27,580 nt of DNA, from IMG/VR virus record IMGVR_UViG_3300020727_000067, positions 1-27,580 of that record; one strand, 5' to 3'. Source of the stretch: a virus. Taxonomy: Duplodnaviria > Caudoviricetes. Shown here one piece after another: positions 11,128-26,336 of this stretch (positions are counted from its first letter, which is position 1; each line of letters starts with the position of its first letter). A model generated the notes under the pieces. That model was not told the DNA's origin. It did not search any database and was given only the letters and a program-made list of their open reading frames with translations. The position numbers and the translations under genes are program-made.

Positions 11128-11629
11128 TGCCTTGAACAATGCCCTTAAGAATATCCAAGGTTTCTAAAAGATCACCTTTGTGCAAGATTCCCTTACCGTC
11201 AACATTTTCCCATTCAATGATATTGCTGGGCTTATCATCGATCAGGATATCACCGGTCTTGCAGTGATCCTTTTTGTTCTTGGCAAACGGACCAAAGTGA
11301 ACAGGAATATCCGGGTAATACTTTTGGCCCCATAGCACCTTGTCGTAGAATGCCCAGTGAACATCGTTACCCTTGGGTACAGCAGTTAGGAACAGGAGTT
11401 TGTAATTACGTGTATCCCTAAGGTAACGACAGTATTCGACTAGCGCATCTGCTTCTTTGGTCTTTTCAAGCAGTCCATAGATGCGAGGATCGCGGATAAT
11501 GCTAGACCAAACTTCGTCGGGCCAGCGACCATCTGGAGCAGGCTGTCCGAGGACCTTGCTTGCATAGCCGTCAAAGTCGGCAACTACGCCGTCCATATCA
11601 AGAAAAAGGGTTGCTCGGGTAGTGGTCAT
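11120..11629 (-). CDS. HAD-family phosphatase (5'(3')-deoxyribonucleotidase-like)
   Basis: LFLDMDGVVADF motif I, FLTA motif II, ILIDDKPSNI motif IV. Confidence 0.85.
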   Translation of the reverse strand: MTTTRATLFLDMDGVVADFDGYASKVLGQPAPDGRWPDEVWSSIIRDPRIYGLLEKTKEADALVEYCRYLRDTRNYKLLFLTAVPKGNDVHWAFYDKVLWGQKYYPDIPVHFGPFAKNKKDHCKTGDILIDDKPSNIIEWENVDGKGILHKGDLLETLDILKGIVQGND

Positions 11630-11657
11630 AAAGTTGCTTTCTATATCTGTGTTAAAA

Positions 11658-11665
11658 TATAAATA
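11658..11665 (+). promoter_or_regulatory. T4-type late promoter box for the GIY-YIG gene
   Basis: TATAAATA about 95 nt upstream of ATG 11760. Confidence 0.5.
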
Positions 11666-11666
11666 T

Positions 11667-11695
11667 ATTATACAATTTTTGTTTTATCAAGTCAA
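11667..11695 (-). promoter_or_regulatory. sigma70-type promoter
   Basis: TTGACT-17-TATAAT. Confidence 0.8.
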
Positions 11696-11702
11696 CAAAA
11701 AA

Positions 11703-11759
11703 GTCCTTCGCGGTTCGGCAAAACCCAAGGACACTAACGGTTATAAAGGAACTATCAGC
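11703..11759 (+). promoter_or_regulatory. Structured 5' leader of the endonuclease gene, copy A
   Basis: GTCCTT-CGC-GGTT-loop-AACC-C-AAGGAC followed by ACTAACGGTTATAAAGGAACTATCAGC; same architecture at 18261-18320. Confidence 0.65.
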
Positions 11760-12503
11760 ATGACTATTTATTTGTACGTCAAAACTCACAATAAAACTGG
11801 GTTAAAATATCTCGGAAAAACAGAATCAAAAGATCCGCACAAATATCGAGGATCTGGAAAACGTTGGACCTATCATATCAAAAAGCATGGATATGATGTA
11901 ACTACAGAAATTTTAAAAGAATGTGCAACCGCTCAGGAAGTAACCGAATGGGGAATTTATTATAGTAAATTATGGGATATAGTTAATAGCACCATGTGGG
12001 CCAATTTAACTTTAGAACAAGGATCAGGCGGCAGTATCAATAAAGGGAAAAAATTTGGTCCTTTATCAGATGAACATAAATCTAAAATAAGTCACAAATT
12101 AAAAGGTATATCCCGATCGATCGAATTTAAAAATAAAATTAGTGAATCACATAAAGGTAAAACATTATCATCTGAAACAAAGAAAAAAATTTCAGATTTC
12201 CGAAAGGAGAAATATGTTGGAGAGTTAAATCCGATGTATGGAAAGGTCCATTCAGCTGCCGTGAAAACGGCTTCAGGCATTCGCCGAGCAAAAACGAATT
12301 CTGAAAGAAGTTGGTACAATAACGGCATAGAGACCAGATTTCTTAAAGAATGCCCAGAGGGATGGACTAACGGAAGATTAAACCAGAAACCCACTACACT
12401 GGGAAACAAGTGGTATAATAATGGGGTAATAGCAGTCTGTGCTAAAGAAAAACCATTTGGTAATGAGTGGGTTTCTGGTATGTTACTTAAAAAGAAGCCT
12501 TAA
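11760..12503 (+). mobile_element. Free-standing GIY-YIG (Seg-like) homing endonuclease with NUMOD3-type repeats
   Basis: IYLYVKTHNKTGLKYLGKT...YRGSG...WANL; repeated SxEHKxKIS and NPMYGKVHS; opposite strand and AT-rich; start at ATG 11760 after AAGGA. Confidence 0.85.
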
Positions 12504-18320: not shown

Positions 18321-19103
18321 ATGTATTTACAAAACAAATATACCAAATGTTATGAATTTATTATTAATAATGCAAGAAATAGGATACATGATCCTTCTGA
18401 GTATTACGAAACTCACCACATTTTGCCAAGATGTATGGGAGGATCGAACGAAAGATCAAATTTAATCAAATTAACTGCAAGAGAGCATTTTATTTGTCAC
18501 ATACTTCTTGTAAAAATGGTGAACGATACTGTCATAAGATCAAAATTGTCTTATGCAGCTTGGCAAATGACTATGATAAAAAATAGACCCCGTTATATCC
18601 CAACATCAAAACAATACGAATTTTTACGCAAACAACTATCTAAAAATACAAAAGGTATTCCCAAAACTGAAGAACACAAATTGGCAATGCGTAAACCAAA
18701 ATCTAATACTGAACATATGAAGGGCGGTAAAGGGAGAACTCCCGGATTCACACAATCAGAAGAAGCAAAATTAAAGCTATCACTTAAAATGAAGGGCCGA
18801 TTAGTAGGAGAGAAAAATCCATTTTACGGTAAAACTCATAGTGAAGAAAATCGTAAAAAGTGGAGTGAAATGTTCAAAGGAGTTCCCTTATCGCTTGAAC
18901 ACAAACGTAATATCGGTAATGGTTTAAAAGGAAAACCTACATGGAATAAAGGTATTCCTATGAGTGAGATAGCAAAACAAAAAGCAGGTATATCACTTGC
19001 GGGCAGAATAACCGTTAATAACGGATTAAAAAATAAACGAGTCAGACCCGAAGAGGTTGACTCGTTTATTGTGCAAGGATGGGTTAAGGGAAAATTAATT
19101 TAA
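18321..19103 (+). mobile_element. Free-standing HNH homing endonuclease with NUMOD3-type repeats
   Basis: ETHHILPRCMGGSNERSNLIKLTAREHFICHILL; NPFYGKTHSEE; opposite strand. Confidence 0.88.
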
Positions 19104-20197: not shown

Positions 20198-20647
20198 TTA
20201 CGTAAACGTCTTTAGTGCCTTAATATCGTCACCGATGTTGTCTTCACTAATAGGACCAAGACCAAGACAAGTCGTGGTTGGCTCCGTGAATACAGTGAAT
20301 GCTGCATCAGTTACAAGATGCGTACCGCAGATGTTCTTATACTTTTCCTGGATGGCCCGAAGCTCATCTACAGTATCTACGATAAGAGTAATCTTATAAG
20401 CACGATCGCTATTCGCATAATCATGCGCCTGGTCGATTTTAGATTTCATGATCTCAAGCCGTTCAATGTTTTCTGCATCAGCCTCGACAATGTTATTTTG
20501 ATCCCACCAAGGACCACTATATGGAGTGATAGCATCCCAAAATGCATGAAGCGCCGCGTGTCCTGCTTGTGTACACATTTTACCACGGATACCGTTCATT
20601 TTATCAATACTTTCTTTAGCAAAAATAATATAGATTTTATGTCTCAT
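20198..20647 (-). CDS. pth2: Peptidyl-tRNA hydrolase, Pth2 type
   Basis: GKMCTQAGHA, KITL, VTDAAFTVFTEPTTTCLGLGP match the Pth2 motifs GK-x-x-x-Q-x-x-HA and DAG-x-T...T-x-LG-x-GP. Confidence 0.85.
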   Translation of the reverse strand: MRHKIYIIFAKESIDKMNGIRGKMCTQAGHAALHAFWDAITPYSGPWWDQNNIVEADAENIERLEIMKSKIDQAHDYANSDRAYKITLIVDTVDELRAIQEKYKNICGTHLVTDAAFTVFTEPTTTCLGLGPISEDNIGDDIKALKTFT

Positions 20648-21336
20648 TTGATATCCCTTTTCTTTGCTTCTCTTGCTTTTGCGGCTAATTTCATTTTTTC
20701 TATCGTCTCCGGAGAAAATTTTCTACCGGTCATTTTTTCACTAATCTGATTGCGTTGTTCGGTAGATATTATTTTTCCTTTATGTGCCGCCCCAATTTTT
20801 TTTCGATGTTCGGCAGATTTTTCTTTTCCAGTGAGTGAATTTGATATTTTTAATTTGTGATCTTCGGACTTTTCTTTTCCAGAAAGAGCATCTGATATTT
20901 TTTTTCGATATTCTTCAGAATATATTTTTTGTTTACTTTTATCCCCGATTTGGCGTTTCGTTACTTCTGAATGGGATTTTCCATAGAATCCATTATCTTC
21001 ACCAAATAGCCTAGGACCTGCATCGCCGCCTTCAGAAACATTTAATAAAATTCCTTTTTTATCTCCATAATGTTTGCGTCCAAATTTTTTGATCAACTCA
21101 ATCTCTAACAGAAATGCATCTTCTCTAGAAAGATTATTTTGCCATATCTTGATATATGGTTTAAACCCTAACAATTTAAGTTTTCTTATTTTTCTGAATT
21201 TAAGTCTATTACATGTTGTGTTTTCGGTTTCGAGATAATGATCATAACACCGATTACCTGAACCCATGCCGACATAAAACGGAAGATAAAAATTTGTAGG
21301 ATCGAGTAGTAAATAGACGTAAAAGATGTTTTCCAT
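20644..21336 (-). mobile_element. Free-standing GIY-YIG endonuclease with NUMOD3-type repeats, inserted in pth2
   Basis: FYVYLLLDP...PFYVGMGSGNR...E..LI...LLN; repeated KSEDHKxKIS; late-like GATAAATA at 21342-21349. Confidence 0.85.
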
Positions 21337-21370
21337 AATGTTATTTATCAAAAACAGTTTACTTACACGC

Positions 21371-21445
21371 TTATTGATTACCACGAATGCCGTTCATCTT
21401 CTCTACGCTTTCGCGGGCAAAGATGCAGTACATTTTAATCTTCAT
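21371..21445 (-). pseudogene. Orphaned original N-terminus of pth2 (24 codons)
   Basis: MKIKMYCIFARESVEKMNGIRGNQ* aligns without gaps to the Pth2 N-terminus MRHKIYIIFAKESIDKMNGIRG. Confidence 0.85.
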
Positions 21446-23560: not shown

Positions 23561-23815
23561 CTATCCCTTATAAATGCTAGTTTGACCGTTATTATAATAT
23601 AAAATCTGTTGTTTGTCAATGGCCTTTGTCAAACATTCATCGCAGACGGTAATCTCGATGAGTTCACTATAATCCATGGTATCAAAGAAAGTTGATCCAT
23701 AATGGCCATTGGTATTAAACACTGTGGCTTTATAGGGTTGATTGTGTTTACAACCACGATATGCTTCTTCGGGTTGATACCCACATACGATACAAGATAG
23801 CAATTTAGCTGTCAT
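23561..23815 (-). CDS. Small Zn-finger protein
   Basis: CIVC...CDEC; ATGA overlap. Confidence 0.7.
   Translation of the reverse strand: MTAKLLSCIVCGYQPEEAYRGCKHNQPYKATVFNTNGHYGSTFFDTMDYSELIEITVCDECLTKAIDKQQILYYNNGQTSIYKG
23571..23622 (-). repeat. 52-bp promoter-containing direct repeat, copy B
   Basis: Contains TTGACA-17-TATAAT; lies inside the 3' end of the Zn-finger ORF. Confidence 0.9.
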
Positions 23816-24219
23816 AGATCTAATCCTACCTTTCCTTTGTAACGAATAGTGGGTTCATCGGATTCTTCGTAGCGAGAATAACCAATCATTTCGCCGTCCT
23901 CGGCGTCAATGTACGGATCAATCCAATCGAGGAATAGGTTAATTTCGTTATCATAGTTCTTAAAGTCACTACGATTGATAAATGACCAGCTCTTACCGAT
24001 TTTGTCATACTCTAGTAGACTAGATGCAATTGGCGTAAAATAGTAACTGGACGAACGAAGCATATAATTCCACCGCCCAGTTTCGAACAAGGGATGGCTA
24101 GGCAAATCGACAATTTCGGGAACATCCAAATCCTCAGCAATCATTAGCTTTAACACATTAATCACCTTTGGGTCATCGACAATGCGAGTCGAAACAACAA
24201 GTTCAGTATACATTCCCAT
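23812..24219 (-). CDS. Hypothetical phage protein
   Basis: 135 aa, MGMYTEL...KNYDNEI..FLDWI, SD AAGGA. Confidence 0.8.
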   Translation of the reverse strand: MGMYTELVVSTRIVDDPKVINVLKLMIAEDLDVPEIVDLPSHPLFETGRWNYMLRSSSYYFTPIASSLLEYDKIGKSWSFINRSDFKNYDNEINLFLDWIDPYIDAEDGEMIGYSRYEESDEPTIRYKGKVGLDL

Positions 24220-24238: not shown

Positions 24239-24559
24239 TGGTGCGCCCGGAGGGACTTGAACCCCCAACCTATCCGTTCAGATTTGTGTAGTTTTCACTA
24301 CTCTCTGGACTATATCATTACCCTCGTCATTACACGTTAGGGTATGGGGCGTTATTGAGAGATTATTGAGAAGGCTTCTCACTCTCTAGTCTCTGCACCT
24401 TCTGGTCTACTTTAATGCCTATTCGACCAGCTTGGCTCAGGATTGCCTTGGACTTTCGTCTTTAGGTTTCCCTGAATTAACCCCATTTGCAATAATATGT
24501 TTCCATATTATGTCACCCTTCGATGAGCGGACAGCTCTGACCAATTGAGCTACAAGCGC
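24239..24559 (-). tRNA. Intron-containing tRNA with CAT anticodon (Ile2 or elongator Met); exons 24523-24559 and 24239-24278
   Basis: Joined exons give GCGCTTG-TA-GCTC-AATTGGTCA-GAGC-T-GTCCG-CTCATAA-CGGAT-AGGTT-GGGGG-TTCAAGT-CCCTC-CGGGCGC-A-CCA. Confidence 0.92.
24279..24522 (-). mobile_element. ORF-less group I intron (IC3-like, 244 nt) after anticodon position 36
   Basis: 5' exon ends in U, intron ends in G; P1 TCAT/GTGA with U-G wobble; P AATTCAGGGAAAC, Q AATCCTGAGC, R GTGCAGAGACTAG, S ATGATATAGTCC. Confidence 0.93.
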
Positions 24560-25184
24560 ATTTGTTAATTTCTTCTTGCACATTATATGCATTATCGTTG
24601 ATCATGTCAACTTCTTTTTTCTTAATTACCAAGATAGGTTTATCAGAATATTTCCATTTAGCTCTGTCTCGATCAGTTTCGTAACCTTTAACTTCGATAT
24701 AGATGTTATCTGCTTCGATTAAGAAATCTGGAAAATATAAATGCCATGAATCATTCCACAAATAAGGAATCGGTTTAATTCCTTTCCTAGTCCATTTTAT
24801 ACCATGCAGGTCTAGATACTGTGCAACTATATATTCCCAAGTACTGTTAAATCTAACTCCATTAACTTCGAAATGTTTAGATCTACCGACTATATTTTTG
24901 TCGGAGTACGATTCTGGATGATCTAATACCGCTTGTTTCATTCTTAGAGATTGTTTTTCTCTATATTCCGGAGTTCTTTGATTTTTAATAGCAGTTTCGG
25001 ATAGTTTCTTTCGAGTTTCTTCAGATAACGGTGGTTGAGACAGTCTTATTTTACTCTGTTTCTGTTTATATTCGTCAGTTTCCCAAAAACCTGGGATCCT
25101 ATTTGGATTTTGAGAGCAACTTTTTGAGTGTACAGTTACTCTGCTTTTTACAGTAAATGCTCTATTACAATATTCACAATTCAT
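24513..25184 (-). mobile_element. PD-(D/E)XK (TnsA-like) endonuclease with N-terminal Zn finger
   Basis: CEYC...H...C; NSTWE, YFPDF, IEVKG; TATAAATA at 25201-25208. Confidence 0.8.
24582..24610 (-). promoter_or_regulatory. sigma70-type promoter for the intron-containing tRNA, embedded in the endonuclease ORF
   Basis: Perfect TTGACA-17-TATAAT. Confidence 0.8.
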
Positions 25185-25235
25185 AAAATTTCTCTTGTAG
25201 TATTTATAAATTGTAATTAAAAGAGCGGTTAGCTT

Positions 25236-25481: not shown

Positions 25482-25498
25482 ATGTACTCATATTTATT

Positions 25499-25534
25499 TG
25501 GCGGAAGCGGTGAGATTCGAACTCACGGATCTCA
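25499..25534 (-). pseudogene. 3' remnant of a split tRNA-Ser
   Basis: GTGAG-TTCGAAT-CTCAC-CGCTTCC-G-CCA; the acceptor strand pairs 7/7 with GGAAGCG at 26324-26330. Confidence 0.85.
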
Positions 25535-25543
25535 CAAAGTATA

Positions 25544-25629
25544 TGGCGGAGTGTGATAGCATCGAACTATATACCTGAAGGTATCTACTGCTTTCGAAAC
25601 AGCGTGAGGAGCCAACCTCAGCACACTCC
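25544..25629 (-). tRNA. Non-canonical 8/4 tRNA-Ser(CGA)
   Basis: 8-bp acceptor GGAGTGTG/CACACTCC, 4-bp T stem ATAG/CTAT, D stem TGAGG/CCTCA, loop TT-CGA-AA, variable arm ATACC-TTCA-GGTAT, G73, CCA. Confidence 0.85.
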
Positions 25630-25631
25630 GT

Positions 25632-26270
25632 CTAGTCATAAAGATTAATAAATTGTTTCCCATAGTTAGTAGTGACATAATCCAATATAGGTCTCATTTC
25701 TTTTTCATAAAGAACGATAATATCAGGATTTTGTGATAGTTTTGCTTCCCATTGGGGTGTGATCCATCCCTTAATTTCTACTAATTTAGAATCAACAATA
25801 AAATCTGGTGTATAACTTTTGATTTGATCTTCAAAGATATATGATCGTTTTTCAGTGTTTCTTTTAATGTCAATTTTGTGATCTAAACAATATATCACAT
25901 AAGCAAGTTCCCAGCTACTATCGCACCAAAATCCTTTATATCGACCAGATTTACCTCGGCCACTACCGCGTTTATAACCACCATTTCCTTGGGTTTTCGC
26001 CCAAATACTTCGTTGCTTTCGTTCTTTATCTGTCCATAATCGTCCCGGCCTGCCTATTTTTGATATAGATAAAGATTCAGCGCCTTTTAATACCCTTCTA
26101 TCGGAATCTTTAGTCAATCCCTTATTCCAAGGTATTACTCCCTTTTTAGCACCGGCGTTTGGTGATATTTTTCGTTGCACACGCGAGGGATTTAATTTGC
26201 AATATGGCCAATGACCACCTAGTGCACCACTATTACTGAACGTTCTATTACAAAATTTACATAGTATCAT
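25632..26270 (-). mobile_element. PD-(D/E)XK (TnsA-like) endonuclease with N-terminal Zn finger
   Basis: CKFC...H...C; DSSWE, YTPDF, VEIKG; start at MILCKFC just after TATAAATA (26276-26283). Confidence 0.8.
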
Positions 26271-26291
26271 GCAGGTATTTATACAAAATAA

Positions 26292-26330
26292 TCGAATGCA
26301 GTGCAATCAGCCGGGCTCTGCCACGCTTCC
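26292..26330 (-). pseudogene. 5' remnant of a split canonical tRNA-Ser(CGA)
   Basis: GGAAGCG-TG-GCAGAGCCCGGCTGATTGC-A-CTGCA-TT-CGA, then AT-rich non-tRNA sequence. Confidence 0.85.
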
Positions 26331-26336
26331 TAAATT

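Follow-up and report, generated by a model that had tools for sequence, protein, structure and literature searches.

The window, which is the whole stretch of 27,580 nucleotides of viral DNA analyzed here, carries on its minus strand a compact cassette: the 5'-half stub of a CAU-type tRNA gene, a free-standing PD-(D/E)XK endonuclease gene, and a replacement tRNA(CAU) gene interrupted by a group I intron that lacks an ORF. Judging from the arrangement of these elements and their relatives, we consider it reasonably probable that the cassette spreads in a manner resembling collaborative homing, in which the replacement tRNA would be protected by its intron: the enzyme likely cuts intron-free copies of the tRNA gene, and the intron would safeguard the spare copy as well as being transmitted along with it. 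From its gene content and late-promoter motifs, the window was judged to belong to a large phage tRNA region of the T4-like type, and the sequencing runs listed as containing this stretch were all freshwater metagenomes (24/24). The relevant features are as follows.

24239..24278, minus strand: 3' exon with CCA (the tract common to the window and the sister phage stops inside the first 15 nt)
24279..24522, minus strand: ORF-less group I intron, 244 nt, Ile2.5Ug class (Rfam, 100 bits; guide GUGA at 24516-24513; P7.1/P7.2 at 24386-24357)
24523..24559, minus strand: 5' exon of the replacement tRNA(CAU), likely Ile2, with the canonical D-loop motif (D-loop score 15.3; control median 16.5)
24582..24610, minus strand: sigma-70 consensus promoter, TTGACA-17-TATAAT, inside the nuclease ORF (12/12 match; 23 nt ahead of the tRNA)
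24513..25184, minus strand: free-standing PD-(D/E)XK endonuclease gene, 223 aa (phrog_15137, E 6e-33; Phage_endo_I, E 9e-6, below the cut-off; T7 endonuclease I, E 4e-5)
25174..25216, minus strand: predicted RNA hairpin between the late-promoter arm and the AUG start (-12 kcal/mol, z -3.79; 1/200 shuffles as good)
25201..25208, minus strand: TATAAATA, which we take to be a T4-type late promoter motif (from the sequence; the same motif is found 5' of several relatives)
25223..25235, minus strand: CAU-type tRNA 5'-half stub, left end of the cassette (read directly; same register as the family stubs; D-loop score -2.0)
25498..26331, minus strand: parallel cassette, in which tRNA-Ser(CGA) is split after the anticodon, with a related nuclease and an 8/4-type replacement tRNA (CGA) (intact gene in the sister phage L291)

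The intron-bearing tRNA gene and the overlapping nuclease gene

The Rfam model Intron_gpI (RF00028) matched the minus strand over its full length from 24534 to 24286, and the removal of 24522..24279 gave a 77-nt CAU cloverleaf with a CCA end. The insertion site corresponds to position 5 of the anticodon loop, after CAU position 36: U36 precedes the 5' side of the intron and the last intron base is G, and the alternative 244-nt registers tested lacked either the preceding U or the terminal G. In P1, UCAU of the exon pairs with the guide GUGA, with U36 on G, and a 33-nt P7.1/P7.2-type element, common to most bacterial and phage introns at the same site, is located between P7 and P3'. The fold of the intron-bearing precursor had a z value of -4.09. 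No ORF on the intron strand was contained wholly within the intron; a 51-codon frame (24592-24437) overlaps its 5' part.

The pairs and bases C4-G69, U12-A23, C29-G41, and A73, which we take to be Ile2 determinants, were present in the window's tRNA, and initiator features were absent; the host tRNA of the intron is likely Ile2 rather than Met. Among relatives of the cassette, UAU copies and TilS-like neighbors occur. The gene was miscalled as Gln by a tRNA finder, and such genes are missed or mis-called by these programs.

The nearest relatives of the intron were bacterial introns at the same site (70-75% identity over about 200 nt), and comparison with cultured phages gave short core matches only, none covering 80%. 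Among the features of the Ile2.5Ug class, a group I core, U at -1 on G in P1, a terminal G, and loop position 5 were found. Position 5Ug is one of four classical bacterial classes, and the Ile2.5Ug introns of bacterial tRNA-Ile2 are listed as subgroup IC3 (Williams 2020, 10.1101/2020.01.27.920355); the IC3 label for the window's intron is taken from this published class and not from structural subgrouping here. In spite of the shared position, U-G pair, and terminal G and the similar P1 and core, the window's intron differed from its bacterial counterparts in its phage location, its length, its P7.1/P7.2 element, and its neighbor: a family nuclease was found near none of the bacterial same-site introns with full flanks (0/41).

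The nuclease consists of an N-terminal C2HC zinc finger, a helical linker, and a catalytic domain. Its Pfam matches (T7 endonuclease I family and C2HC zinc finger) were weak, its best relative of solved structure was T7 endonuclease I, and the catalytic PD...EVK (P152 D153, E164 V165 K166) was invariant in 24/24 aligned relatives. The structure model had a mean pLDDT of 83.6; Foldseek gave nothing at E 0.001, and the best match, to I-Bth0305I (E 0.014), was weak. Residues 214-223 were unstructured in the model (pLDDT <50), and the final ~14 codons come from reading through the tRNA 5' exon and P1, the stop codon TGA (24515-24513) being the last three letters of the guide and 10 nt of the ORF lying inside the intron. 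Since the ORF lies mostly outside the intron, the nuclease is not intron-encoded in the manner of I-Ssp6803I. A scan of viral contigs with this single protein returned the window's own sequence alone.

The coordinates agreed with two observations in the earlier note: a 244-nt ORF-less intron after CAU position 36, supported here by the Rfam core and the restored cloverleaf, and a PD-(D/E)XK ORF that holds a promoter, runs across the entire 5' exon, and ends in the GTGA guide. The Azoarcus intron, cited there for the same position, is described as compact, with 205 nt (PMC13168695), whereas the window's intron has the P7.1/P7.2-type element.

Without the 5' arm of the predicted hairpin, nothing folded (0 kcal/mol), and transcripts starting at the late promoter are predicted to lack this start-sequestering structure; nuclease translation is predicted from these folds to be confined to late transcripts. 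Embedded sigma-70 sites with 10 or more matches were found in 9/62 non-self relatives vs 10/502 control windows (p 5e-5), and the hairpin and internal promoter together are predicted to uncouple most of the tRNA precursor from translation. Start-burying hairpins and promoters embedded in ORFs are described for T4 homing endonucleases (Edgell et al. 2010, PMC2988022). A second 12/12 sigma-70 promoter (23591-23619, minus strand) is embedded in the 3' end of the ORF 23561-23815.

Transfer footprint and the nuclease family

The same stub, ORF, exon, and intron were found in another background: in two metagenome loci (L291 and L294) and in a contig from run X4, which may all be one lineage. From 25242 to 24279, the sister tract had a single difference from the window in 964 nt, whereas the flanks were 79-93% identical and had different neighbors, with neither tRNA-Arg(CCU) nor the gene 23812-24219. 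In the 3' exon, 3/40 nt differed (24263, 24258, and 24253; L291 and L294), two of which form a compensatory T-stem pair. On sequence grounds, this near-identity between diverged flanks is a homing footprint, and the end of the tract just inside the 3' exon is expected from the repair of an anticodon-loop break. The nuclease unit was thus optional and recently transferred with co-converted flanks (1/964 vs 79-93%). No empty CAU site for this phage group was found in the material searched. Intron-less joints in X16 and X21 were rejected as empty sites because each side was less than 30 nt long and other organisms may be their source, and run X23, in which parts of the ORF appeared without differences but with neither intron cover nor a joining contig, was not used. 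In the 5' exon of L291, a 1-nt D-loop deletion near window position 24542 lets the nuclease frame continue as far as the intron core; it may be an assembly error.

The family set comprised the 80 best of 341 viral relatives, eight GenBank phage loci, the window itself, and two metagenome loci, and the removal of exact duplicates and five near-duplicates left 65 family loci. When scoring was limited to the 10-nt D-loop motif in the DNA upstream of the ORF (threshold score 8), a stub was found in 34/65 loci, one of which (L148) was an intact tRNA. At the unscored positions, the matches were 29/34 for C32, 29/34 for U33, and 21/34 for C34, followed by 8/34 for A35, 8/34 for U36, and 5/34 for A37 (position 33 vs 36, p 5e-7); among control hits inside ORFs, CT was in register in 0/10 (0/30 at score 6). 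From the end of the stub match at 33/34, we infer that the family inserted into the CAU anticodon loop, which would place its insertion site 2-3 nt from that of the intron. A mixed Met/Ile profile for the stubs was also tried and rejected: it was blunt (25/73 significant), and several of its hits were intact tRNAs of other kinds. The window's own stub comprises the 3' strand of the D-stem and the 5' strand of the anticodon stem, ends with CTC at position 34, and directly follows the CCA of tRNA-Arg(CCU); with 13 nt, it is too short to be significant alone.

A CAU or UAU replacement tRNA was found near the nuclease stop in 39/65 loci (three copies were UAU). The family stood next to intron-less CAU tRNAs in 36/65 loci, and a motif screen of the 64 non-self loci found no intron beside the family nuclease. 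The canonical D-loop was found in 2/36 CAU replacement copies vs 44/115 controls (p 1e-4), and the dead stub outscored the working tRNA copy in 19/21 paired loci, a contrast that is inflated because the controls were not lineage-matched and the stubs were picked for high score. The window's replacement copy has both the canonical motif and the intron, and L136 and L153 have a canonical intron-less CAU copy beside the nuclease. A similar D-loop variant was found in L022 with no family nuclease hit, and some family members are located beside Arg, Val, Leu, or Thr tRNAs or beside none.

In intron-less members, the ORF commonly runs on into the tRNA as well, and its stop falls at varying points, from ahead of the gene to beyond its end, so the overlap is not tied to the intron. 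Among the closest proteins, P0002 (87%) has a tail that resembles exon and P1, with another frame end, and looks intron-linked, and P0003 (84%) has a tail that resembles an uninterrupted loop in which the D arm is changed and looks intron-less; since a pattern for their DNA gave 22 matches, none with a tRNA following it, both tRNAs were read from the protein tails alone. In L050, an apparent stub and a related nuclease accompany an intron-bearing tRNA-Asn copy.

Several family loci had unusual tRNA genes. Behind a CAU-type stub, we observed UAU tRNAs (L127, L286, and L293) and UAU allo-type tRNAs (L135 and L137), and UAU replacements would read AUA without lysidine. In seven loci (L140, L160, L169, L183, L185, L186, and L198), the nuclease stop is followed by tRNA-like genes with a swapped arm order, in which the CAU arm comes directly after the acceptor stem and is followed by a D-loop-like hairpin; such genes also occur upstream in L158 and L168. 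In three cultured Straboviridae (L002, L004, and L008), the anticodon loop of a tRNA gene is interrupted by the family nuclease and both halves are retained, and neither a ribozyme nor a replacement copy was seen there. In many cases, the D-loop stub is better preserved than the functional tRNA, and it directly adjoins the late promoter; by analogy with I-TevI, family stubs could act as an operator.

Distribution of the intron and explanations of the locus

A viral 3'-end pattern gave 68 matches, including 20 same-site CAU introns, 15 of which were distinct: eight ORF-less (self included) and seven ORF-bearing. The ORFs in all seven were HNH (five by Pfam and two by visible likeness). A family nuclease flanked 2/7 non-self ORF-less phage introns vs 1/64 intron-less controls (p 0.024; p 0.17 when counted as one lineage), and because these two nucleases (L223/L228) are sister proteins in a convergent arrangement with T-arm-like stubs, the enrichment provides no support for a homing link. 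Among bacterial genomes, 68/120 pattern matches were same-site introns, and the intron-less pattern occurs in an estimated 14,000 or so viral stretches. The intron and the family nuclease occurred mostly apart in phages and bacteria. In L208, an unrelated nuclease-like ORF with no Pfam hit lies directly upstream of the intron tRNA. TilS-like genes adjoin the intron-bearing CAU tRNAs of L208 and L216, and group I introns were also observed in other phage tRNAs, including Asn, Lys, Leu, Arg, and Thr (L022, L050, L054, L117, L224, L230, L231, L233, L235, L236, L246, L253, and L263), several of them with HNH-like ORFs.

Under the collaborative-homing-like explanation, a founder insertion would have split a CAU tRNA gene at 33/34 and left the 5' stub upstream. 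The nuclease would cut the CAU anticodon loop, to which the window's copy would be immune by virtue of its intron. During repair, the 3' tRNA half of the recipient would pair with the 3' exon of the donor, and the left end would pair either with the stub or upstream tRNAs, transferring the whole cassette, or with the 5' exon, transferring the intron only; the intron would ride along by either route. The hairpin and late promoter would restrict nuclease synthesis to late times, the embedded sigma-70 promoter would supply ribosome-free pre-tRNA, and the fact that the ORF overlaps the exon and P1 would be an incidental by-product of the compact design. Homing of this kind at a tRNA target, as proposed in the earlier note, stands in part: the scar in the CAU loop and the joint movement of nuclease, exon, and intron favor it, whereas the general separation of intron and nuclease does not.

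That separation is one ground for an alternative that we regard as rather unlikely but deserving of weight, in which the cassette homes with the intron as a passenger that reached the replacement tRNA by a separate route, either out of a bacterial Ile2 gene or through an HNH intron relative, and protection comes from exon or flank differences or from tight expression control. The family is mostly intron-less, the intron is common without the family in phages and bacteria, the enrichment lost significance after lineage correction, the two canonical intron-less residents (L136 and L153) exist, and T4 SegB is described as coexisting with sites in its own genome (PMC2330249). However, the window's copy is one of the few with the canonical motif and would be exposed without the intron, and a distance of 2-3 nt separates the break of the stub from the intron site.

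A relaxed cutter like SegB, which would recognize a T-arm or D-loop motif present in many tRNA genes and drive the whole tRNA region with no special tie to the intron site, appears improbable. The members beside other tRNAs or none and the T-arm-like stubs of the convergent L223/L228 pair are consistent with it, as is the T-loop motif recognized by SegB (PMC2330249); however, the stubs end sharply at 33/34, and the shared tract is about 1 kb rather than a whole tRNA cluster, with different neighbors.

It is very improbable that the overlap itself is selected, either because ribosomes stopping on the guide gate P1 or as a step in the entry of the nuclease into the intron: although the stop codon lies in the guide, ribosomes on late transcripts would cover P1, and the L291 deletion extends the frame into the intron core, intron-less relatives have their stops at scattered points, some ahead of the tRNA and others beyond its 3' end, the ORF of P0002 terminates in a different frame, the tail has low confidence in the model, the hairpin and internal promoter are predicted to uncouple translation, and the intron ORFs at this site are HNH. 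Both corresponding suggestions in the earlier note were not supported: none of the seven ORF-bearing same-site phage introns represents the end state to which an intermediate towards intron invasion would lead, and, as regards an influence of translation on P1 folding, the stop position varies freely across the family and the closest relatives.

Known systems and a second cassette

Cases of collaborative homing in protein genes are F-CphI/psbA of cyanophage S-PM2 and T3 gene 5.3. The term refers to a free-standing endonuclease plus a group I intron without an ORF, acting at one target (PMC3984707). The window is similar in that an ORF-less intron adjoins a free-standing nuclease whose presumed target is the intron site, each being also found alone; it differs in that a tRNA gene serves as the target, the enzyme is of the PD-(D/E)XK type, the intron is located in a carried replacement copy, and a stub of the old gene remains upstream. 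I-Ssp6803I, a PD-(D/E)XK homing enzyme inside the Synechocystis tRNA-fMet intron, acts in the anticodon region of a CAU tRNA gene. It shares with the window's nuclease the PD-(D/E)XK type, the presumed target region, and the link to a group I intron, but is encoded within the intron and belongs to another loop position (fMet.2Ug), and it was absent from the sequence and fold matches of the window's nuclease. In the fungal mitochondrial mobile ORFs of Allomyces atp6, a nuclease inserts in the gene that it targets and brings a copy by which this gene is restored; unlike these, the window's carried copy is the 5' part of a tRNA holding a group I intron. T4 SegB, a GIY-YIG enzyme described as recognizing a T-loop motif, is located in a phage tRNA cluster and has its start in a hairpin (PMC2330249, PMC2988022, PMC13096335). 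The window's free-standing nuclease has the same kind of location and a predicted hairpin-sequestered start, and SegB is described as driving tRNA gene inheritance; however, as described, SegB sits between tRNA genes with no intron partner or replacement copy. Neither collaborative homing at a tRNA gene nor such a cassette family was described in the literature covered, which included few subscription papers; the main text of PMC7162821 does not contain the word "intron," and the covered portion of PMC7886860 reports no tRNA introns.

We tentatively propose, as a possibility still short of even chances, that a large family of anticodon-loop homing cassettes attacks phage tRNA genes, each cassette bringing a cleavage-resistant replacement. 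This may explain odd phage tRNAs, namely, those with extra D-loop bases, CAU-to-UAU changes, 8/4 allo-tRNAs, and arm-swapped genes, with the intron as one resistance allele, and the locus may then be the first case of collaborative homing at a tRNA gene as well as a route of spread for ORF-less tRNA introns. The locus, with its natural transfer footprint, bears on how such introns spread without a nuclease of their own and offers a pair that is testable in vitro: one enzyme, one 77-bp target, and one intron. It also suggests that phage tRNA sequences are shaped by selfish nucleases in addition to host anticodon nucleases or codon use.

In the second cassette, the PD-(D/E)XK nuclease gene (25632-26306) encodes a protein with 24% identity to the focal nuclease. 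The intact tRNA-Ser(CGA) of L291 shows the empty site for this cassette directly. The replacement Ser(CGA) gene (about 25542-25631, minus strand) was missed by ARAGORN and by Rfam at gathering thresholds; its predicted fold has a long acceptor stem and a short T stem, a form that may be likened to the 8/4 allo-tRNAs (PMC7609411). Further free-standing homing-endonuclease-like genes were observed in the window at 11622-12503 (by inspection), 18321-19103, and 20644-21384 (NUMOD3), two of them on the opposite strand.
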